Origin: Octopus vulgaris
Taxonomy: Eukaryota
DNA: 64,000 bases
Direction of reading: 5' to 3'
NCBI GenBank assembly: GCA_951406725.2
Contig: OX597843.1
Location: 3,224,001 to 3,288,000, forward strand
Shown: piece by piece, positions 17,260-59,647 of the stretch
Position numbering within the stretch: the first letter of the stretch is position 1
Layout of the letters: each line of letters starts with the position of its first letter
Notes under the pieces: generated by a model
Databases searched by the model: none
What the model saw: only the letters and a program-made list of their open reading frames with translations
What the model was told of the DNA's origin: nothing
Position numbers and translations under genes: made by a program

Positions 17260-17663
17260 TGACTAGTCGATCCTTACATTGTGTTATTGTGTTTATTTAC
17301 GTTGCTCGGTAGGTCGTCGTAGGATCGACTAGTCACGGCTAGCTTATGCGAGTGCGCGCACCGGGACCACTGTTCTCGAGTAGTACCATCGTAAAGCTCG
17401 TCAAACTCGCGCGCACAAAGTTCGGTCTTCTAAAATCGTATGTGTGGGCGTTATGTGTTTTAATGAGCTCTGGGGTGATGGTCACGGGGATTGCCTATTG
17501 AGGTAAACGGAAGTGAAGACTGCAGGCCCCGGCGAAAGAGCCACGGGCGCATGCGCGGACAGAATTCAGTTTGGCGCAATTCAATGAGAGACGGCAAGGG
17601 TGGCAGGACCCTGTTTTTCTTCAATTTAAGGGCAGCGATCGCTCGTCCCGCCTCGGTCGACAG
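17260..17663 (+). promoter_or_regulatory. Putative promoter/exon 1 of ZNF unit 3
   Basis: Same motifs; donor 17663/17664; acceptor 23332/23333. Confidence 0.6.
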
Positions 17664-17871
17664 GTAAGGCCTCTCTATGGTTAAACTATTATTTCACTGG
17701 CGATCTTACGGTATAAGTACCGGATACATTTAAAAAAAGTGGGGGGTTAGGGTTAGGGGTTGGAGAAAAGGGTTTCTCTTATCTTCAGAAATGTAAAGTC
17801 ACGTGTGTACATGTACCGAAGGATCGCCACATACCTTAACCCTAACCCCCCATATATAAAAAAAAAAAAAC

Positions 17872-19248
17872 TTGGTACTTGTCAATTGTCGTGGTCCCGG
17901 TTTTGCACACGCGAATTCGCGCGCGCGCGCGCGCCAGACGTAGGTACTCGATACTCGAGATCCTACGAGGTGAAATGCGCAGCGCAGAATTCGCGCGTGC
18001 GCGTTAAACCCCCCCCCTAAAAAAAAAGGTGTTGGATTTCACTAAAAATATATGTGTGTGTGTGTGTGTGTGTATATATAACATTTTCAATTTTACACAA
18101 AAAAATTACATAGTCGCTTTCCTCGCGGATTTACAGAGAAATGAATTAATTACTATTTTACAGAATAAAATTAATGAATTAATTATATAAATTAAATAAT
18201 TCTTGAAAATTAATTAATATTAATAATATTTTTTGAACAAAGTAAATAATTTATAAAACTTGGTTAATAATTTTTTTACACAAACGCGAACGTATATAAT
18301 TTGTGAAATTTTTTTTTTTTTACAGACGTATATAATTTGGTAAACTTAATGAATTAATTTCTTCTCATCATCATCATCGTTTAACGTCCGTTCTCCATGC
18401 CAGCATGGGTTGGACGGTTCGACCGGGGATCTGGGAAGCCAGAAGGCTGCACCAGACTCCAGTCTTATCTGGCAATGTTTCTACAGCTGGATGCCCTTCC
18501 TAACGCCAACCACTCCGAGAGTGTAGTGGGTGCTTTTTACATGCCACCCGCACAGGTGCCAAGCGAGGCTGGCAACGGCCACGGTCGGATTGGTGCCAGT
18601 CGAGGCGGCTCTGGCATCGGCCACGATTCGGATAGTGCTTTTTACGTACCACCAGTCCAGGGGTCCTGGCATTTGCCGGGTGCCACACTTGCCCCAACAT
18701 GTCTTCGCAAGCAAAGGGGGTTGGCATGGGTGCCTGTCGTGGGATGAGGTTCGATATCAACTTCGCTTGCCTCAACAGGTCTTTGTGTATAAATGTATAA
18801 ATTTTTCGCACTAAATTCTTTCCGTAGAATTTATAAAAAAACGCGCAAAATTATTCCGTAGACTTTATCAAATTAAAAAACGCAAAATTAATATATTTTT
18901 TGAAATTGCAAATTATTTAGAATATAAAACAAATTAAGTTAAATTTTAAAAATAAATGTCATATACTTATACTCTGTAAAGTGCTGTGTTCACACTTCAA
19001 TTTACTATTTTCTAGAAATGTTGCTTTTCTAATTGAAACAATTTTTCTCAATCTCCATTTAAAAGTCCATAATGCCTCTTGAGCCATATCAAAATGAACA
19101 ACTTTGAATTACCCGGTGGTGGTGGTGGTGGTGGTGTGAGGTTCTAATTTTTTTCTGATCTCTCTTTGCCCCCCCTAGATGGAGGTGTGGTGGGGAGACA
19201 GATGAAAGATGTTTCATTCTCTACTATATATGTATATATATATCTATA

Positions 19249-19281
<33 letters not shown>

Positions 19282-20780
19282 CTTAAACCTACACGATATA
19301 GTCTATAAATTTGGGATGTTTTTGAAAGATAATATATTTTGTCATCAGAATATATATACTTTCTCACACTACAATTAAGATATATTTATTTTAAATCGTT
19401 CATCTTTTCCCGCGACAACAAAAATTGGGCGCGAAAATTTTTCTAAATATTAGCTGAATGAACAACTGAGATAAAGAGGGGGCAAAGAGAGATCAGAAAA
19501 AAAATTAGAACCTCACACCACCACCACCACCACCACCGGGTAATTCAAAGTTGTTCATTTTGATATGGCTCAAGAGGCATTATGGACTTTTAAATGGAGA
19601 TTGAGAAAAATTGTTTCAATTAGAAAAGCAACATTTCTAGAAAATAGTAAATTGAAGTGTGAACACAGCACCTTACAGAGTATAAGTATATGACATTTAT
19701 TTTTAAAATTTAACTTAATTTGTTTTATATTCTAAATAATTTGCAATTTCAAAAAATATATTAATTTTGCGTTTTTTAATTTGATAAAGTCTACGGAATA
19801 ATTTTGCGCGTTTTTTTATAAATTCTACGGAAAGAATTTAGTGCGAAAAATTTATACATTTATACACAAAGACCTGTTGAGGCAAGCGAAGTTGATATCG
19901 AACCTCATCCCACGACAGGCACCCATGCCAACCCCCTTTGCTTGCGAAGACATGTTGGGGCAAGTGTGGCACCCGGCAAATGCCAGGACCCCTGGACTGG
20001 TGGTACGTAAAAAGCACTATCCGAATCGTGGCCGATGCCAGAGCCGCCTCGACTGGCACCAATCCGACCGTGGCCGTTGCCAGCCTCGCCTGGCACCTGT
20101 GCGGGTGGCATGTAAAAAGCACCCACTACACTCTCGGAGTGGTTGGCGTTAGGAAGGGCATCCAGCTGTAGAAACATTGCCAGATAAGACTGGAGTCTGG
20201 TGCAGCCTTCTGGCTTCCCAGATCCCCGGTCGAACCGTCCAACCCATGCTGGCATGGAGAACGGACGTTAAACGATGATGATGATGAGAAGAAATTAATT
20301 CATTAAGTTTACCAAATTATATACGTCTGTAAAAAAAAAAAAATTTCACAAATTATATACGTTCGCGTTTGTGTAAAAAAAATTATTAACCAAGTTTTAT
20401 AAATTATTTACTTTGTTCAAAAAATATTATTAATATTAATTAATTTTCAAGAATTATTTAATTTATATAATTAATTCATTAATTTTATTCTGTAAAATAG
20501 TAATTAATTCATTTCTCTGTAAATCCGCGAGGAAAGCGACTATGTAATTTTTTTGTGTAAAATTGAAAATGTTATATATACACACACACACACACACACA
20601 TATATTTTTAGTGAAATCCAACACCTTTTTTTTTAGGGGGGGGGTTAACGCGCACGCGCGAATTCTGCACTGCGCATGCGCAAGTCACCTCGTAGGATCT
20701 CGAGTATCGAGTACCTACGTCTGGCGCGCGCGCGAATTCGCGTGTGCAAAGCCGGGACCACGACAATTGACAAGTACCAA
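17872..20780. mobile_element. Foldback-type element, 1.3-kb inverted arms around a ~300-bp spacer
   Basis: 17872-19173 is the near-perfect reverse complement of 19478-20780 (mirrored ORFs in the track); AAAC on both flanks; absent from the other units. Confidence 0.88.
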
Positions 20781-21901
20781 AAACTTTTTTGAAACGTATC
20801 CCGTACTTGCGGAAGTACAGCGGTACTCATACCTATTTCTTTACTACCCACAAGGGGCTAAACACGGAGGGGACAAACAAGGACAGACAAAGGGATTAAG
20901 TCGATTATATCGACCCCAGTGCGTAACTGGTACTTAATTTATCGACCCCGAAAGGATGAAAGGCAAAGTCGACCTCGGCGGAATTTGAACTCAGAACGTA
21001 ACGGCAGACGAAATACCGTTAAGCATTTCGGTACTTATACCGTAAGATCGCCCACTTCCGGAAGTAGACGATCGCCATTTCACTTCGATAGTGTTGGTTA
21101 ACGGGTCAAACTAAAGCGTTTAACCCGGGCACGAAAAAGAAAAAGGAAAAAAAAAAAGGGTCCATGGCCTTTAAACTATAAGTGTTTGACCTTGGCCAGA
21201 AAAAAATGGACAAAATAGTGTAATAGGTGTAAAACTACTTATTCTAAACGATTATGAAAAACATACACACACACACACAAAGAGAAATGGTTGGTTGAAG
21301 GCAAGTGTGCATTGAACTGGATTTCAATAAGCAAGAAAGATATTATCAAAGAAAAGGCCATGGTACCATCTTTAGGATCTGTTGTTGTTGTTGTTATTAT
21401 GGGGTTGAATGTGTGGGTGTGCGGTGAAGTTATTAATATCAATATGTATGCATATATATATATACATACATATATATCTATGTATGTGTATACGTATATA
21501 TATATATAAATACATACGTACATATATATGTATATATATATATATATATAAATATATATGTATGTATATATATATATATATATACATATATATGTATGTA
21601 TATATATATATATATAAATGTATATATATATATATAAATACATATATATATATATAAATGCATATATATATTTATATATATATATATATATACATATATA
21701 ATTATATATATATACATACATGCATGTATATATGTACATACATATATATATATATACACACACATATATATATATACACACACACATACATACATTCACA
21801 TATATATATATACATATATATATGCATATATATTTATATATATATATATACATACATGCATGTATATATAGACATACATATATATATATATATATGTATA
21901 A

Positions 21902-21932
<31 letters not shown>

Positions 21933-23698
21933 CTAGCAGCATAACCCAGCTTTTCTCGGCATTAAGTTAGGATTATTAAGCTAAAGAAGTTCTTTATTTC
22001 AAACCAAACAGAATATATTCCTTGCCACCGGTACAACACTCACCGACAAACCGCCGCGAAGCAGCTCGAGAAATTCCGTTTGTCTCGTCAAAAGCCAGCA
22101 CACCAAACTGACCGACGCATGCGCGGGAAGCAAGCTTCTTACCCTGCAGCCATGCCTGCACCTATGGTAGAATTCTTCAGAAATTCTACAGGATTGGCTG
22201 TGTGGTAAGTAGCTTCCTAACCAACCACACGGTTCCGGGTTCAGTCCCACTGTGTGGCATCTTGGGCAAGTGTCTTCTGCTATAGCCTCAGGCCGACCAA
22301 TGCCTTTTGAGTGGATCTGGTAGACGGAAACTGAAAGAAGCCTGTCGTATATATGTATATATATATATATGCGTGTGTGTATTTGTCCCCCTAGCATTGC
22401 TTGACAACCGATGCTGGTGTGTTTACGTGCCCGTCACTTAGCGGTTCGACAAATAAGACCGATAGAATAAGTACTGGGCTTACAAAGAATAAGTCCCGAG
22501 GTCGATTTGCTCGACTAAAGGCGGTGCTCCAGCATGGCCGCAGTCAAATGACTGAAACAAGTCAGAGAGTAAAGAGTAAGAGTATCTAACCTTCCAGCAG
22601 TGTATAAACAGAACATCAGGACATCTATTTCTTTGGCTTCACTTAAATTTTACTTCCAGATTGATTCTAATATGAGACTGCCAAGGAATTTTCAATTTGT
22701 CAACTACTGTCAAATTTGTATTCTTCCTACCGCTCTATGTCACGCTGGTGAGACCCATATTGGAGTAAGGGATTCAAGCCTCTTCTCCTTATCTCCTCAA
22801 AGACATACAGCATCTCTAAAGCGTCCAGAAGTTGGCTACCCGCATGGTTCTTGGTGTCAAGAATTTGTCTTATGAAGAAAGGCTGACGACGCTCGACCTT
22901 TATTCTCTAGAAAAACGACGATGCCGTGGTGATCTCATTCTTGCTCACAACATCATAAGCAGAAAGTGTAACCTCTCAAAAGAGCTGTTCTTCGCTCCTG
23001 CTCCAGAGCGTTGGCTGCGGGGTCATTCCGAAAAGCTCTATCTGCGACGATTTCATCTCAATCGAAGGAGAGAGGCTTTCCCTGTCCGTGTTGCGGGTCC
23101 GTGGCATAAGCTGCCGGACGAGATGGTGAGGATGCCAACGACCGCTCGGTTCAAAGTCTCCCTTGACCACAAGTGGCCTGAACTCTTTACATGAACACCA
23201 CCCTGCTGTACATAACTCCATGTCCCCCTACATGGCCTTGCTTTTTGCATTTTGAGCCAAAAATTAACTAACTAACTAACCTTAAATTTCTATGTCTCCT
23301 CCCTGATTGACGCAGTTTCTCTGATATTTCAGATAACCAGAAGACATTGGCAGCAAAGAATACTTCAATGGTCAGAATCGACGTTTGCCATCTTTCAAAG
23401 ATTAAAGGAGAACATCACAGGGAACAGATATCACACGGAATATGTAAACACATGGTGGAATTACTGTGGAATATTTCTTCCGAGTAAGACTGTTAGTGAA
23501 ATATCTCTACTTCTTCACTGTCTGGAATGTTTTGAAGATGATATGGTATTCTAATTAAACTTGGATGACAAAGGAGTTTGAGGCATCTTCAGATAACAGA
23601 AGATTCAGGAAATATAAAGAGAATAAGTATTTGTTAATGAAAACAAAATTTAGTTCGGAAAAAGTAAAACATCTGAACATTGTGGTAAGAGGAAGAAA

Positions 23699-25810
<2,112 letters not shown>

Positions 25811-36948: not shown

Positions 36949-37998
36949 GTAAGGCCTCTCTATGGTTAAACTATTATTTCACTGGCGATCTTACGGTATA
37001 AGTACCGGATACATTTAAAAAAAGTGGGGTTTTTTTATATATGGGGGGGTCAGGGATAGGGTTTGTGTTAGGGGTGGGTGAAAAGGGTTTCTCTTATCTT
37101 CAGAAATGTAAAGTCACGTGTGTACATGTACCGAAGGATCGCCACATACCCTAACCCCCCCATATATATAAAAGAGACCCTTTTTTGAAACGTATCCCGT
37201 ACTTGGGAAGTACAGCGGTACTCATACCTATTTCTTTAGGTTAATATAGGGCGTTACGATTATCAGAAAATCAAAAAAAAAATGTGTGTAATAGGTGTAA
37301 AACAACTTCCTATGAACGAATATGAAAAAAAAATTCGCGCACGCGAAAGGGGGTTGGGGAGAGGCCTCGGAAAATTCACATCGGGAAGTTCCGAAAGCGT
37401 CTGAGGAGCTGACCCGGGCACCAAAACAAAAAAAAAAAATAGTGTAATATGTGTAAAACAACTTGCTCTAAACGAATATGACAAAAAAAATGCGCTCTCG
37501 CGAAAGAGGGGTGGGGGAGAGGCCTCGGAATATTTATATCGGGAATTTCCGAAAGCGTCTGAACCGGGCACAAAAACTGGACAAAATAGTGTAATAGGTG
37601 TAAAACTACTTATTCTAAACGATTATGAAAAACATACACACACACAAAGAGAAATGGTTGGTTGAAGGCAAGTGTGCATTGAACTGAATTTAAATAAGCA
37701 AGAAAGATGTTATCAAAGAAAAGGCCATGGGACCATCTTTAGGATCTGTTGTTGTTGTTGTTATTATGGGGTTGAATGTGTGGGTGTGCGGTGAAGTTAT
37801 TAATATCAATATGTATGCATATATATATATACATACATATATATCTATGTATGTGTATACATATATATATAAATACATACATACATATATATGTATGTAT
37901 ATATATATATATATAAATACTTATATATGTATGTATATATATGTATATATATATACATATATATGTATGTATATATATAAATGTATATATATATAAAT

Positions 37999-40900
37999 CA
38001 TCATCATCGTTTAACGTCCACTTTCCATGCTAGCATGGGTTGGACGGTTCAACTGGGGTCTGGCAAGCCCGAAGGCTACACCAGGCCAGTCAGATCTGGC
38101 AGTGTTTCTACAGCTGGATGCCCTTCCTAACGCCAACCACTCCGAGAGTGTAGTGGGTGATTTTATGTGCCACCGACACAGGTGCCAGACGAGGCTGGCA
38201 GACGGCCACGCTCGGATGGTGTTTTTTATGTGCCACCGACACAGGTGTCAGACGAGGCTGGCAGACGGCCACGCTCGGATGGTGTTTTTTATGTGCCACC
38301 GACCAGGTGCCAGACGAGGCTGGCAGACGGCGACGCTCGGATATGGTGTTTTTCTTATGTAATACCGACACAGGTGCCAGACGAGGCTGGTGAATGGCTA
38401 CGATCGGATGGTGTTTGTTACGTGCCCACGGCACGGAGGCCAGTCGATGCGTTACCGGCTACGGTCCCGTTCGGATGGTTTTCTTATGTGCCACCGGCAC
38501 TGGTACCACAAGGATACAAATTCCATTGATGTTCATCTATTTTGATTTGGTTTGACTTGATTCGATTTGCCTCAACAGGTCTTCACAAGTGTCACAAGCA
38601 GGAAGGTATGCACAGGTGGACTGACTATGTCCCAGGTAGGGGCCACGGGTTATGGCTTCACTAGTCTTGCCGGGTCTTCTCACGCACAGCATACTTCCAT
38701 AGGTCTCGGTCTCTAGTCATTTCCATGGTGAGACCTAACGTTCAAAGGTCGTGCTTCACCACCTCGTCCCAGGTTTTCCTGGGTCTACCTCTTCCACGGT
38801 TTCCCTCAACTGCTAGGGATTGGCACTTTCTCACACACCTATCTTCATCCATTCTCGCCACATGACCATACCAGCGCAATCGTCTCTCTTGCATGCAACA
38901 ACTGATGCTTCTTAGGTACAACATTTCTCTCAGGGAACTAACGCTCTGTCGAGTAAGTACACTGACATTACACATCCATCGGAGCATACTGGCTTCATTC
39001 CTCATGAGCTTACGCATGTCCTCAGCAGTCACGGCCCATGTTTCACTGCCATGTAGCATGGCAGTTCGAACACATGCATCATACAGTCTGCCCTTTACTC
39101 TGAGCGAGAGGCCTTTAGTCACCAGCAGAGGTAAGAGCTCCCTAAACTTTGCCCAGGCTATTCTTATTCTAGCAGTTACACTCTCAGCACACCCACCCCC
39201 ACTACTGACTTGGTCACCTAGATAACGGAAGCTATCAACTACTTCTAATTTTTTCCCCTGGAAAGTGACGGAAGTTGTTTTCTGCAGATTTTCGGAGGTC
39301 AATGCTCCCGAGCATCTGCCACATACAAAAACTATCTTCCCAGTTAGCCTACCTTTGACATTGCTGCACCTCTTATGTGTCCATAGCTTACACTGGGTAC
39401 ATCTTATAGAGTTTCTACCTACACCTTTTCTACAGATCGAGCAGGGCCATCTTCCTGAGGACATTTGTGGATTGCCTACCTTTCTACTTATTAGTACTTT
39501 GGTTTTAGCTAGGTTGACTCTAAGGCCCCTCGATTCTAAACCCTCCTTCCACACCTGGAACTTCTCCTCCAGTTCTGATAGTGACTCAGCAATTAGAGCG
39601 AGGTCGTCAGCATAGAGGAGCTCCCAGGGGCAACCTGTCTTGAATTCCTCTGTTATTGCCTGGAGGACTATGATAAATAGGAGGGGGCTTAGTACTGAAC
39701 CCTGGTGGACCCCAACCTCTACTTTGAATTCTTCTGTGAACATGTTGCCAACCCTAACCTTGCTTACGGCATCTCTGTACATGGCTTGCACAGCCCTCAC
39801 CAGCCATTCATCTATCCCTAGTTTCCTCATTGACCACCAGATGAGGGATCGGGGGACCCTATCAAAGGCTTTCTCCATGTCAATGAAAGCCAGGTATAGG
39901 GGCTTATCTTTGGCTAGGTATTTCTCCTGCAGCTGCCTTACCAGGAATATAGCATCAGTGGTGCTTTTCCCTGGCACAAACCCAAACTGCATCTCATCTA
40001 AACTAACTCTCTCTCTAATTAGTTGGGCTATGACCCTCTCCGTAACCTTCATTACCTGATTCAACAGCTTGATACTTCTGTAATTATTTGTATCTAGGGC
40101 ATCACCTTTACCTTTGTAGCAGTTGACTAGTACGCTGCTACACCAGTCATTGGGTATGACTCCTTCGTGTATCACCTGGTTGACTATACGGGTGACTAGG
40201 TTATAGCCGACACTGCCAGATATTTTGAGCATCTCTGCAGTAATTCCTGATGGGCCTGGGGCTTTCCCTGTCTTCATGCTTCTAATTTCCTTAGCTACCA
40301 CGGAACTATCAACTCGGATAGCTGGTCCCTCTGTTGGGTCAACATTCGGCAAACTCTCTTTATCCCATTCATTTTCTTTATTCAGCAACCTTTCATAGTG
40401 GCATCTCCAAACCTCTCTCTTTGCATCCTCATTTAGCGCAAGTGAACCATCATCCATGCGAACACACTTCTCTCCTACCACATCACGATTCTCTCTCACA
40501 CACTGTCTTGCAACACGAAATACCTCAAGTCTTTCATCCTCACGGCGCAGAACATTGGCAAATTTTTTCTTATCCGCTTCCCCTCTGGCTAAATAAACCT
40601 GTCTCCTAGCTTCCCTTCTGGCTGTCTGATACAATTCCCTGCTACCACCGTTCTTCCAGTCCTTCCAAGCCTGTCTCTTTTGTCTAATAGCCCTGTCAAC
40701 CACAGTGTTCTGCCACCATGTTACTCTGGGTTGAGATGGTACTTTGCTCCATCCACAGATCTGGTCAGTGGCTGTCAGCAGATTGTCCCGTAGAAATCTC
40801 CAGTTGTCTTCCACATTAAGTGAAGCTATATCCCCTTCTATTTCGTCAAAGGCTTCGAGTAGTATGTCTCTAAATCTCTGTCCATTTGCAGGATCTTTAA

Positions 40901-42262
40901 GCTTCCAGACCCTTCTCCTCCAAGCAGGTCTTCTTCTGGGCAACCATTTAGCTCTGATCCTGAAGTCGCTAACTACTAATCTATGTTGAGGAGTGCATTC
41001 TTCGCCTGGAAAGGTTTTGGCATTTATAATCAGCCCTCTTTCCCTTTTTCTGGCAAGGATGTAGTCAATCTGGCTGGTGTGTCTGCCAGAACGGTAGGTG
41101 ACTAGGTGAGAGGAGAGTTTCCTGAAGTTGGTATTGCAGACCATAAGGTCATTTGCATCGCAGCCTGGTTCCCTCCTCATTACGAGAGCCGAAACCGTAG
41201 CCTCCATGGACGCCATGGAAGCCCCCGACATGCCGTCCGACATGTCCATTGAAATCACCTGCCACGAAGAGAAGGTCACTGTCATTTGTCAACGAGGTAG
41301 TTCGCAATAGGGTGTCATAGAATTGGTCTTTTTGTCCTTCCGGTAGCCCTGGTTGAGGGGCATATGCCGAGATGATGGTAACTGTCCTGTGGTGAAGGAC
41401 TAATCTAATTTTAATTACTCTGTCACTTACTCTGACTACCTCAATTACCTTACCTACCCATTTCTCTGCAAGAAGTATACCAACGCCCCCGACCCCGTCA
41501 GTGTTCCCTGCCCAGAAAATCTTGTACCTGTGTTCCTTGCCTGTGAGGAGCCTAGCGGAACCTCCTCTCCACCTTACTTCCTGGATACAACATAAATCCA
41601 CAAGTCTCTGTTCAAGCAGCTCTACAATCTCTCCAGACCTACCTTTCAATGTGCCAACTCTGGGGGTGTGGGAGGTGTGGGCATCTGAGACCCTGGGATG
41701 AGGGACAGCCGTGTCATGTACCTGAAAAGAAAGCTTGCATTTGGCAGATTTCATATGGAAACACTAGACTACAACCTGCATACATTTCACATATATTGCG
41801 CTATATGATCAGATAAACCCTACATAGGTGCTAGTGGGGGGGGTAGTTAGGTAAGACAGGGGTAGAACTTCCGGTATTTTGGTAGAAACTTCCGGTATTG
41901 GTGGAGGGGGTGGGAGGGCGTGCGAGAACATAGAGGCAACTAGTTTGAATATTATATTTAGGGGAAAATAATAAGATAAATGAAAGAGAGCCAGATAGAG
42001 AATGAAAATAAATAATAAATACGGTATGGTAATGATACGAGGGGGCAATATTTTGAGGGATAATGGAATAAACAACGAAGATGGCACTGAAAGAAACGGT
42101 AAACTTTAAAAGAATGCATTGAAGACGCTATGTTTTAGCGAAGGGAAACGAAAGGGGAACAGATTAAGGTTATCTAAACAAACGCTTAAAAATATGAAAG
42201 TAGCAGTTGAGGTTTAAAGTCTTAACTGGCCATTTTGAAAATCCGTCTTTTCTCTGGAGGCG
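37999..42262 (-). mobile_element. Apparently full-length RTE-clade LINE, inactivated
   Basis: APE endonuclease (IQEVRW, GDFNGH, IDYIL), RT (KAFDRV, GVHQGSVLSPLLF, YADD), (ATG)n tail; whole span absent from other units; AAAT on both flanks. Confidence 0.92.
38742..41754 (-). pseudogene. RTE ORF (endonuclease + RT + PHD-like finger), frameshifted near 41160
   Basis: ORFs 41149-41754 and 38742-41285 overlap at NEEGTRL/CDANDL; stop after KHDL where other copies continue KHDLRTLGLTEEM. Confidence 0.88.
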
Positions 42263-49934: not shown

Positions 49935-52106
49935 GACAGATAAGAAAGCTGAGGGTGTCTTGACATCACTCACCAAGTCCTTTGTGAGCCGCTCTCCGGC
50001 TATCTATCTGTGGCTTTATATAGCTATGGTGCGACCTCACCTGGAATTTGCATCACCAGTCTGGAACCCCTACCTAGCCCAGGATATCAATCGTCTGGAA
50101 GCCGTTCAGTGATGTGCAACCAAGAGAATACCCCCCCCATCAGGCATTTGCCATATCCTGAACGCCTTACTTCCCTGGGCATGGACACATTGAAACTCCG
50201 ATGTCTGGCAGCTGATTTGGCAGACACCCATAAAATTATTAACCATCTTACTAACAATAACTCTGAGTACCTTTTCAAACTCCACCCGTCTAACACTCGA
50301 GGACATGTTTACAAAGTCAGAAAACAGCACAGCTCCTTCCATGACTTTCGGAAATATTTTTCCACGCTAAGAATTGCCGAAGCATGGAACAAACTGCCGG
50401 CATCGGTTGTTAGTTGTTGGAGCACTGCATCCTTCAAAACTTCCATGCTTCCTGAGATTCGCCAACACTACACCTGATCTTCTCCCCTCCATACACACAC
50501 TGAAGCATGGAACAAACTGCCAGCATCGGTTGTTAGTTGTTGGAGCACTGCATCCTTCAAAACTTCCATGCTTCCTGAGATTCGCCAACACTACACCTGA
50601 TCTTCTCCCCTCCATACACACGCTGAAGCATGGAACAAACTGCCGGCATCAGTTGTTCGTTGTCGGAGCACTGCATCCTTCAAAACTTCCATGCTTTCTG
50701 AGATTCGCCAACACTACACCTAATCTTCTCCCCTCCATACATACACTGAAGCATGGAACAAACTGCCGGCATCAGTTGTTAGTTGTTGGAGCACTGCATC
50801 CTTCAAAACTTCCATGCTTCCTGAGATTCGCCAACACTACACCTGATCTTCTCCCCTCCATACACACACTGAAGCATGGAACAAACTGCCAGCATCGGTT
50901 GTTAGTTGTTGGAGCACTGCATCCTTCAAAACTTCCATGCTTCCTGAGATTCGCCAACACTACACCTGATCTTCTCCCCTCCATACACACGCTGAAGCAT
51001 GGAACAAACTGCCGGCATCAGTTGTTAGTTGTCGGAGCACTGCATCCTTCAAAACTTCCATGCTTTCTGAGATTCGCCAACACTACACCTGATCTTCTCC
51101 CTCCATACACACAGTGAAGCATGGAACAAACTGCCGGCATCAGTTGTTAGTTGTCGGAGCACTGCATCCTTCAAAACTTCCATGCTTCCTGAGATTCGCC
51201 AACACTACACCTGATCTTCTCCCCTCCATACACACGCTGAAGCATGGAACAAACTGCCGGCATCAGTTGTTCGTTGTCGGAGCACTGCATCCTTCAAAAC
51301 TTCCATGCTTCCTGAGATTCGCCAACACTACACCTGATCTTCTCCCCTCCATACACACGCTGAAGCATGGAACAAACTGCCGGCATCAGTTGTTAGTTGT
51401 CGGAGCACTGCATCCTTCAAAACTTCCATGCTTCCTGAGATTCGCCAACACTACACCTGATCTTCTCCCCTCCATACATACACTGAAGCATGGAACAAAC
51501 TGCCAGCATCGGTTGTTAGTTGTTGGAGCACTGCATCCTTCAAAACTTCCATGCTTCCTGAGATTCGCCAACACTACACCTGATCTTCTCCCCTCCATAC
51601 ACACACTGAAGCATGGAACAAACTGCCGGCATCAGTTGTTAGTTGTCGGAGCACTGCATCCTTCAAAACTTCCATGCTTCCTGAGATTCGCCAACACTAC
51701 ACCTGATCTTCTCCCCTCCATACACACACTGAAGCATGGAACAAACTGCCGGCATCAGTTGTTAGTTGTCGGAGCACTGCATCCTTCAAAACTTCCATGC
51801 TTCCTGAGATTCGCCAACACTACACCTGATCTTCTCCCCTCCATACACACGCTGAAGCATGGAACAAACTGCCGGCATCAGTTGTTAGTTGTCGGAGCAC
51901 TGCATCCTTCAAAACTTCCATGCCTCCTGAGATTCGCCAACACTACACCTGATTGTCTCCCCTCCATAAACACACAAGCATGTATCTGACTCATGCATTG
52001 TTCACTTCCCAGACATTTGTACATTACTGCATATACTCTATACACACTTTGGACAAGTTGTGGGGCACCTGAGCACTGTATACAATAATTTCATTATTAT
52101 TATTAT
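49935..52106 (+). mobile_element. CR1-clade LINE 3' fragment with internal tandem amplification
   Basis: LPYPERL..LG..TL..NTRGH.YK..AEAWNKLPASVV..FK; (ATT)n tail near 52093-52106. Confidence 0.82.
50379..51975. repeat. 123-bp tandem repeat, 13 copies
   Basis: gaagcatggaacaaactgcc at 50379, 50502, 50625 ... 51854 (one copy 122 bp). Confidence 0.96.
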
Positions 52107-57470: not shown

Positions 57471-57681
57471 ATATATATATAATGGTGTGGAGAGGAGAGG
57501 CCGGTATGCATGGGTGACTGCTGGTCTTCCATAAACAACCTTGCCCAGACTTGTGCCTCGGAGGGTAACTTTCTAGGAGCAACCCCATGGTCAGTCATGA
57601 CTGAAGGGGGTCACAACACAACTTAATCTCATTAATTCAAATACAAAGACACTTATACATATTTAAAATCCAAGTACTTAC

Positions 57682-58607
57682 TGCAAAGCGTTGCGCATGA
57701 ATTTCTCCGTAATATAATCTCTACAGTTGGAATTTTCAAATGCCAAGTAAAATTTATATTCTTTTTCTAGCATTTCGAAACATATCGGATCGTCCTTTTT
57801 TGTACAGGTTTTTGTACCACAAAACCCGTAAATATCCACCTGGATATATTTTCCAAGTTCCTCGGCATAGCCCATTCGATTATTGGTAGGACAGCAATTA
57901 GAAGTGAACCAAGCGACCTTCTTTGTTTTTCCCTTGGCATAATTTACGTCTTGTTTTCTCTGCCTTACTGAATCGATAAAATATAAATATCTCAGGTAAG
58001 GATATACAATCGTACTGTCCTCGCGATATGTAATCGTCCAATTGATTCTGTTCCCCAAGTGTCTAACCGACGGGTTGAAATTAGGGGACTCCTGTGTCAT
58101 GTATATCCATATCTGATTTGGGTTCTTTGGTTTCTCTGATATTCCTACTGTCTCATAAAAGAAAATAGCGTCCACGCTCTCATGCTTTGTTTTGTCATGT
58201 GTAACCAGGCATTCATTGACTGGGCAGTTCTGTTCCAAGAAAGTCCCTTGATTTTCTTTCAATGGTCGCAGATACATCAAATTGTGTATTAATAATGTCT
58301 TAAACCTTCGTCGGATCGGTTTCGACTTGACATTTTCATCAGCATCTGACCGATTTGGGGACACGTTCCGGTCATCATTACCCCGTCTTTTCTTTGCCGA
58401 TAAGGTATATCCTAGCTGAGCATCCATACGATCATTACCGGATTGTTCTCCCGGAACGAGTAGAGGCGAATAGCTTGTGTAGGAAACAGGTTGCTGTATC
58501 CCTATTACGACGTTTTGTTTGAATTTACAAAAATAGAGATAACAAATGAATGCGATTATTATCACGAGAAAGATAAACGCAAAACATTTTCGCCTGCACG
58601 TTCTCAT
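57682..58607 (-). CDS. Alpha-1,3-fucosyltransferase (GT10), coding exon 1
   Basis: N-terminal TM anchor (FAFIFLVIIIAFICYLYF), ESP and NWTITYR motifs, alpha-3 motif YKFYLAFENSNCRDYITEKF; donor TTGCA|GTAAGT at 57682/57681. Confidence 0.93.
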
Positions 58608-59647
58608 TGCTTTCTGAGTGTTGCAAATAGTGTGAATTTACTGTTTACGTAGTCGGCAGCATTTGTTGGTTGTGAGGGAGAGACGGATTGGACAGGAGAG
58701 AGAAAGGGAGAGCGCGACAGCGACGTGAAACAGCTTGGATAGGAAATACAAAATATGTATATGTGTATATATGTATATATATATATATGTATATATATGT
58801 ATACATGGAAAAATGAGAGAAAATAAATAGTAAAAGCTTTCAAGTGCTGAATATTAAAGTTCAGATATATTGATATAGAGATTCCGTCTGTCGTTACGTT
58901 CTGAGTTCAAATTCCGCCGAGGTCGACTTTACCTTTCATCCTCTCGGGGTCGATAAATAACATACCAGTTTCGCACTGGGGTCGATGTAATCGACGTAAT
59001 CCCTTTGTCTGTCCTTGTTTGTCCCCTCTGTGTTTAGCCCCTTGTGGGTAATAAAGAAATAAGAAACGTTAGCACACTGGGCAAAATGCTTTGTGGTATT
59101 TTGTCCACCGTTGCGTTCTGAGTTCAAATTCCGCCGAGGTCGACTTTACCTTTCATCCTCTCGGGGTCGATAAATAAAGTACCAGTTACACACTGGGGTC
59201 GATGTAATCGACGTAATCCCTTTGGCCGTCCTTGTTTGTCCCCTCAATGTTTAGCCCCTTGTGGGCAGTAAAGAAATATATATTAATATAGAGGTCCAGT
59301 GTAATTTTCTCTGCCTTTGTATTTACAAAGGAGAGGAAATAAGGGGTTGTAAGTCCAGCAGCTGTCTTTAGGGGCTTCGAGGTCCATCACGATGCTAGTA
59401 GATGTCACAATATGCAGGCTGTAAAGGAAGCAATCAACAGTGGATGAGACGATCCTCCAGTACCAGGGTAGGAAATATCTTACATTTCAGACGACAGTAC
59501 AAAGAGGTTAAAAACTAGAATGATTAAATGTGGAGAGCAAGTAGTGGGGGGGGGGGGTCAATAGAGTTGTGGGGAGTGGTAAGACGGAATGACGAGGGGA
59601 AATAAGGGAGCTAGTTCATGAAAGAGGGGACACTGATAATGGAGGGT

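Follow-up and report, generated by a model that had tools for sequence, protein, structure and literature searches.

The foldback described here, which lies in a stretch of 64,000 nucleotides of the Octopus vulgaris genome (contig OX597843.1, hereafter the window), is a young non-autonomous element of the Merlin type, whose composite arms are unusually long and evolve in concert. We consider it highly probable that it inserted recently as a copy of a non-coding DNA transposon family, likely moved by a Merlin transposase, and that new mutations are shared between the two arms within copies of this family far more often than by chance, likely by means of recurrent gene conversion.

The element extends from 17874 to 20778 and ends in GGTAC..GTACC, termini that were fixed by comparison with other copies (Table 1). 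The near-identical 1.3-kb arms noticed in an earlier reading of the letters alone, the sequence-only reading, are borne out by an alignment of 1313 columns with 98.4% identity, where the differences are mostly confined to the outer 140 bp. Inside the true termini, these differences consist of four clear substitutions (17901, 17983, 18562, and 18980) and five indels, two of 6 bp close to the tip and three of 1 bp in runs, and the longest perfect runs between the arms measure 417, 291, 264, and 167 bp. The flanking target-site duplication is the 8-mer AAAAACTT, and the same site is found unbroken, with no foldback, in four paralogous zinc-finger (ZNF) units of the window. The TTGG..CCAA ends and the AAAC duplication originally proposed were wrong, as both had taken in flank bases, which became evident from 62 copies with different flanks. 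The absence of coding capacity holds as far as intact ORFs are concerned, but each arm carries a decayed fragment of a Merlin transposase (tblastn E 4e-8). An assembly fold-back chimera, named by the same reading as what would overturn it, is ruled out by three observations, namely the target duplication, the sites left empty in paralogous units, and the dispersal of the family.

Table 1. Features of the foldback and of its probable host unit (window positions).
Feature	Position	Strand	Basis or remark
First exon of the host ZNF unit (probable, non-coding); putative donor AG|GT at 17663/17664	17490..17663	+	Donor common to five units
Older short-TIR repeat (23-bp inverted ends), found in ZNF units; received the Merlin insertion	17699..21052	.	
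Target-site duplication, left copy, AAAAACTT	17866..17873	.	Other copies; site intact in four paralogous units
Left arm (terminal inverted repeat), 1303 bp, GG start	17874..19176	+	Arm alignment, family copies
Tip and outer arm, common to the transposase-bearing Merlin copy L123 (84%, 419 columns)	17874..18258	+	
RTE-type LINE 3'UTR, 5'-truncated, (GAT)n end, without clean duplication	18366..18783	-	L146 has the empty site
Body of second Merlin family (L190-L203 type), internally deleted; transposase remnant ~18989-19090	18811..19136	-	
Single-copy spacer, 298 bp, contains a TA run	19177..19474	.	
Spacer part matching the region upstream of the L123 transposase (96% over 78 bp)	19336-19411		
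Right arm, mirror of the left; RTE piece ~19869-20286, transposase remnant ~19565-19663	19475..20778	-	
Target-site duplication, right copy	20779..20786	.	Other family copies
Probable second exon; intact 597-codon C2H2 ORF, ATG at 23699, 20 fingers	23333..25492	+	Contigs of presumed RNA runs start at 23330/23338

Exact-motif searches of the 2.8-Gb assembly returned 117 matches for the A-type tip (3 for the control), 71 for the B-type, 19 for the C-type, and 195 for an inner-arm motif, counts that put the family at around 100 dispersed copies, broken ones included. Candidate counts of 597 and 703 were rejected as copy numbers, as they are counts of seeds. Two full arms were present in 62 of the 121 stretches examined, and all 124 arms of these full copies start with GG. 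An 8- or 9-bp target duplication flanks 56 of the 62 (9 bp in 33 and 8 bp in 23), the other six having no exact one. Divergence from the subfamily majority is as low as 0.09% for A copies and 0.49% for B copies, and the family is therefore young. B-type tips are frequent on four small contigs (C26-C29), where 21 of the 71 lie on 5.2% of the genome, these tips being paired and hence not independent. At loci L112, L151, L152, and L153, C2H2 zinc-finger ORFs adjoin the element, as they do in the window. A second tip type, with 107 exact matches and subterminal tandem repeats (L099, L111, L112, and L131-L135), sits both on short elements and on long foldbacks sharing the spacer or the arm of the window element; two of its carriers, L111 and L133, have 8-bp duplications.

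Merlin elements have been described as GG-ended, with target duplications of 8/9 bp and TIRs of 24-462 bp, and 191 Merlin sequences were counted in Octopus bimaculoides (PMC8101967, in whose main text the term "foldback" is absent). The octopus family resembles them in its terminal 5'-GG, its 8/9-bp duplications, and its link to a DDE_Tnp_IS1595 transposase, present in relatives with nearly the same tip. At three loci (L123, L118, and L124), the window-type tip and outer arm adjoin such an ISXO2/IS1595 transposase, and the ORFs of L123 and L118 match PF12762 with E values of 1.4e-19 and 1.8e-20, respectively. The L123 tip is identical to that of the window element at 25 of 27 bases, and the likeness extends 385 bp into the arm (84%) and includes 78 bp of spacer (96%). 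The L123 ORF comprises 298 open codons and has the motifs EIDE, HSD, and NSVE. Contrary to the Merlin elements of PMC8101967, the octopus arms reach 1303 bp, around three times the reported 462-bp maximum; this range is descriptive rather than diagnostic, and the part of the arm common to the transposase-bearing copy, 385 bp, falls within it. Also unlike in those elements, these arms are composites of two Merlin families and an RTE tail, without a transposase of their own. The remnant in the inner part of both arms comes from the second of these families (E 4e-8), which is the inner-arm donor and the more widespread one, with open transposase frames of ~300 codons at several loci (L190-L203).

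No complete autonomous partner with two such tips was seen among the 30 transposase loci fetched out of 134 matches, each with ~1.5 kb of flank. Nor were both tips found at any of the three loci with at least 92% protein identity, of which L123 shows a single tip in 9.4 kb, L118 and L124 being broken copies. We therefore infer the mobilization of the element, which a Merlin-type transposase supplied in trans has likely brought about. One of these loci, L118:3192-6525 (contig C9, ~89.44 Mb), is a Merlin copy whose transposase region is itself mirrored. A Pif1-helicase fragment lies between its arms, which measure 1.1 kb and are 98.5% alike, the arm extension having reached over the gene.

The retroposon piece, whose presence in both arms had been correctly recognized from the letters, matches the 3'UTR of a LINE of the same window at 37997-38221 (88%), together with the start of its upstream UTR. 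This LINE (~38000-41763, minus strand) has Exo_endo_phos and RVT_1 domains, and we place it provisionally in the RTE clade, following the sequence-only reading and C-terminal motifs. The insert has what is expected from an RTE-clade LINE, being the 3' end of an element with endonuclease and reverse transcriptase and ending in a short tandem tail. Past its reverse transcriptase domain, the window LINE has a PHD-finger match that is weak and does not reach the cut-off (E 6e-4). A search for copies with and without the RTE piece, suggested by the earlier reading, found it in both arms of every full copy, and found one relative lacking it: L146, one-armed, with the other tip, a longer transposase remnant, and a visible empty site, and with a tip-only copy of 122 bp inside. 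From the empty site of L146 and the presence of the piece in all full copies, it follows that the RTE piece was inserted later and was mirrored before the burst, which upholds the proposal that an arm was mirrored after this insertion and that the element then transposed. On L099 and L112, the other tip is found on RTE-bearing arms, at both sides, and thus mirroring affected both the RTE insertion and an exchange of tips.

Mirroring did not stop there. Variants were compared in a single assembly over 61 copies (dropping L140, a segmental duplicate) and 1061 columns, with simple runs masked, resulting in 79 variants present in one arm only and 30 present in exactly two arms. Both arms of one and the same copy hold 22 of these 30, where around one would be expected: shuffling arm pairs within subfamilies gave a mean of 1.03 same-copy variants and a maximum of 9 in 10,000. 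With CpG changes removed, 18 of 22 two-arm variants are still within one copy. Arms are also closer within than between copies (1.26 vs. 1.81 for A; 3.89 vs. 8.98 for B), and in a tree of 19 arms, the two arms are sisters for all seven two-armed copies placed (support 92-96; one pair identical). The six sites separating the A and B subfamilies are in both arms in most copies of each, specifically in 12-16 of 19 B copies per site, and variant 609 is mirrored in all four arms of the segmental duplicates L139 and L140.

Half-converted intermediates were found as well. Variants 271 and 736 are shared by L085, where both are one-armed, and L080, where 271 has been mirrored and 736 is confined to a single arm. 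L082 carries one A-type and one B-type tip, and L043 and L093 stand stepwise between B and A. We conclude that arm-to-arm gene conversion is likely recurrent; a simple two-copy model gave a conversion/mutation ratio of ~1000 (740-1260), with unsampled ancestors counted into the branch of each copy. None of the four one-arm variants of L139 and L140 (three arising after the duplication and one older) is mirrored, and thus there is no sign of conversion in place in that pair. The eight listed indels of at least 20 bp are one-armed, save one of 37 bp in L101. Along the arm, there is no clear trend, the tip, outer, RTE, and inner bins holding 7, 1, 9, and 5 mirrored variants vs. 27, 11, 26, and 15 singletons. 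The window copy has no mirrored private variant among the unmasked columns; its both-arm difference at 18309, beside a T run, was masked. Finally, three shared one-arm variants on opposite sides are suggestive of spacer flipping: a 36-bp deletion, in the left arm of L061 and L070 and in the right arm of L081, and two point variants that also switch sides. This deletion is flanked by direct repeats and recurs in L096.

Of 25 short copies listed with two tips, 16 were kept for the analysis of broken copies, these being the ones whose two ends tile the element; three tip-only minis and six copies that the script could not resolve were dropped. One end is at most 110 bp long in nine of the 16, the other is at least 1190 bp long in 15, and 15 retain the target duplication. 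Their breakpoints are all distinct, mostly with an overlap of 0-10 bp, which would fit either aborted gap repair or hairpin-loop cutting, the two being indistinguishable here. Two mini palindromes joined tip to tip, L071:401-482 (82 bp) and L130:403-486 (84 bp), come without an exact 8/9-bp duplication.

The surroundings of the window copy are formed by a tandem array of at least five C2H2 ZNF units (812-47500), with ORFs of 19, 20, 20, 7, and 29 fingers, and each unit has the same older short-TIR repeat in its probable first intron. There is a weak hint that an intron of the host unit, at 17664-23332, holds the foldback. It comes from the contigs of four of 24 public runs, which were compared with parts of the window, none of the runs listed being recorded as RNA and seven of the 24 sharing under a quarter of the sequence words; the RNA status of three of the four is a guess, and contigs drop rare variants. 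Contigs of two presumed RNA runs, from two studies, end at 17663 and begin at 23330 or 23338, those of a third run span both donor and acceptor, and the DNA-like run spans the acceptor, with no cover at the donor. The exon-1 contigs have paralogue-type letters, with 8-10 differences from the host unit, and none of the contigs listed has the host unit's own letters in exon 1. The location in a ZNF intron given by the sequence-only reading agrees with the shared donor and the contig ends, and transcription of this particular unit is putative, the exon-1 contigs being of paralogue type. The animal group of the octopus is known for its heavy RNA editing, and the contigs have a few A-to-G rows, which appear also in the DNA-like run or in contigs with other differences. 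Transcription of the window copy would let its arms pair, as a by-product, into an RNA duplex of 1.3 kb with perfect stems of up to 417 bp.

Other explanations have to be weighed, concerning both the nature of the element and the likeness of its arms. Long inverted repeats and 9-bp duplications are typical of the Mutator-like superfamily, and a Mutator-like foldback moved by a MULE transposase would agree with 9-bp duplications being the commonest class (33 of 62), a feature that is shared with Merlin and hence not diagnostic, as well as with the 66 MULE-domain matches in the genome. However, its tip adjoins ISXO2 transposases, its arm holds a Merlin remnant, and none of the 20 MULE loci fetched out of those 66 (~1.5 kb of flank per side) matches the tip, the arm, or the spacer, which makes a MULE origin highly improbable. 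It is also very unlikely that the foldback or the identity of its arms was generated by assembly or polishing. All variants come from a single assembly, single-site polishing between arms is conceivable, and N gaps lie inside two copies (L103 and L076); even so, 56 of the 62 copies have target duplications, with different flanks, the window arms differ from each other, subfamily-level changes are consistent over 42 A copies, variant 609 recurs in the four arms of L139 and L140, and arm sequence is also present in the contigs of four public runs.

Regarding how the arms came to be alike, the sequence-only reading had one arm copied from the other after the RTE insertion, as a single event, with both arms independent since. 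The copying and its timing stand, the mirrored variants showing that it happened more than once. The RTE piece in both arms of all full copies and the 79 one-arm singletons would suit a single event, but hardly the 22 of 30 two-arm variants confined to one copy, the subfamily-separating sites occupying both arms in most copies, or the two tip types, each two-sided, on the same RTE-bearing arm, and we find this version scarcely credible. Selection might instead have kept the mirrored arms for a useful RNA duplex, which might act as a sink for ADAR, restrain the ZNF gene, or give rise to small RNAs directed at the abundant RTE tail. The perfect stems of 417, 291, 264, and 167 bp, the insertion at only 210 bp past the probable donor, and the presence of non-RTE arm sequence in contigs of three presumed RNA runs (at the family level, with RNA status guessed) would be in line with such a role. 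The window copy is, however, very young (0.09% for A copies) and absent from the four paralogous units, and thus conservation gives no argument for function; moreover, the exon-1 contigs are of paralogue type, and a DNA-level process explains the family-wide mirroring without selection. Usefulness of the duplex therefore appears improbable, and recurrent conversion between the arms of a Merlin foldback is the reading that we develop below.

According to the mechanism that we propose, an internally deleted Merlin body would have acquired the RTE 3'UTR. Repair of a break in one end would then have used the other end as the template, so that the inverted repeat grew inward as far as the spacer, as has been proposed for Galileo. 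Later breaks, either at excision sites or in the extruded palindrome, may have been repaired with either arm as the template: because both arms read alike from the tip inward, a broken end that has copied the tip could continue on either one. Such repair would mirror or erase new variants and sometimes flip the spacer, and when aborted, it would leave one-armed copies. A bolder version, which we regard as unlikely although not far-fetched, has mirroring built into the life cycle, with post-excision ends copying either arm of the sister template, so that cargo is doubled, subfamilies are spawned, and 1.3-kb dsRNA cassettes against the retroposon tail are scattered into ZNF clusters. If this were true, a mobile palindrome would duplicate any cargo, be it an RTE tail, a piece of transposase, or an entire new tip.

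In sex-chromosome palindromes and plastid inverted repeats, arm-to-arm conversion keeps the two arms alike, with a single-copy spacer between them. Contrary to these large single loci, the octopus unit is mobile, measures 2.9 kb, and has ~100 dispersed copies. A closer counterpart is Galileo, a P-superfamily element of Drosophila mojavensis, whose non-autonomous 2-TIR and extended-TIR copies are nearly all long arm; according to PMC3573991, its arms grow by taking up internal sequence, one TIR is proposed to serve in the repair of the other, and long TIRs are said to draw recombination and conversion. The octopus copies share with Galileo (PMC3573991) that they are mostly long arm, that internal sequence has been recruited, and that inter-TIR repair is proposed, and differ from it in coming from another superfamily. 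Whereas conversion in Galileo is proposed from structure in the text of PMC3573991 considered here, the octopus family provides counted mirrored single-base variants, intermediates, and a rate estimate. TIR-TIR recombination within one element, which inverts its interior, has been described for insertion sequences of Wolbachia (PMC3004938); contrary to these bacterial elements with short TIRs, the evidence for a spacer flip in octopus is suggestive only. This kind of system is thus known from Galileo and from palindromes, and it is the superfamily setting and the countable conversion record that were not found in the literature searched. Neither a Merlin foldback with long arms nor this octopus family was the subject of any paper found there, Repbase, Dfam, subscription journals, and supplements being outside the scope of the search.

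What the family offers is a set of ~60 full-length copies, dispersed and nearly identical, in which mirrored variants can be counted and intermediates have been caught midway, making it testable whether the homogenization of a palindrome is tied to the breaks made by a transposase or proceeds with time. With this family, the Merlin superfamily also comes to include foldback elements, whose arms exceed the lengths reported, and mirroring accounts for a retroposon piece found at mirrored sites. A copy located in a transcribed intron would represent a natural test substrate for editing, a role that is putative. Elsewhere in the window, there are a young tandem array with a period of ~122 bp and repeats 96-97% alike (50376-51982), and a minus-strand ORF with fucosyltransferase domains (57681-58637).
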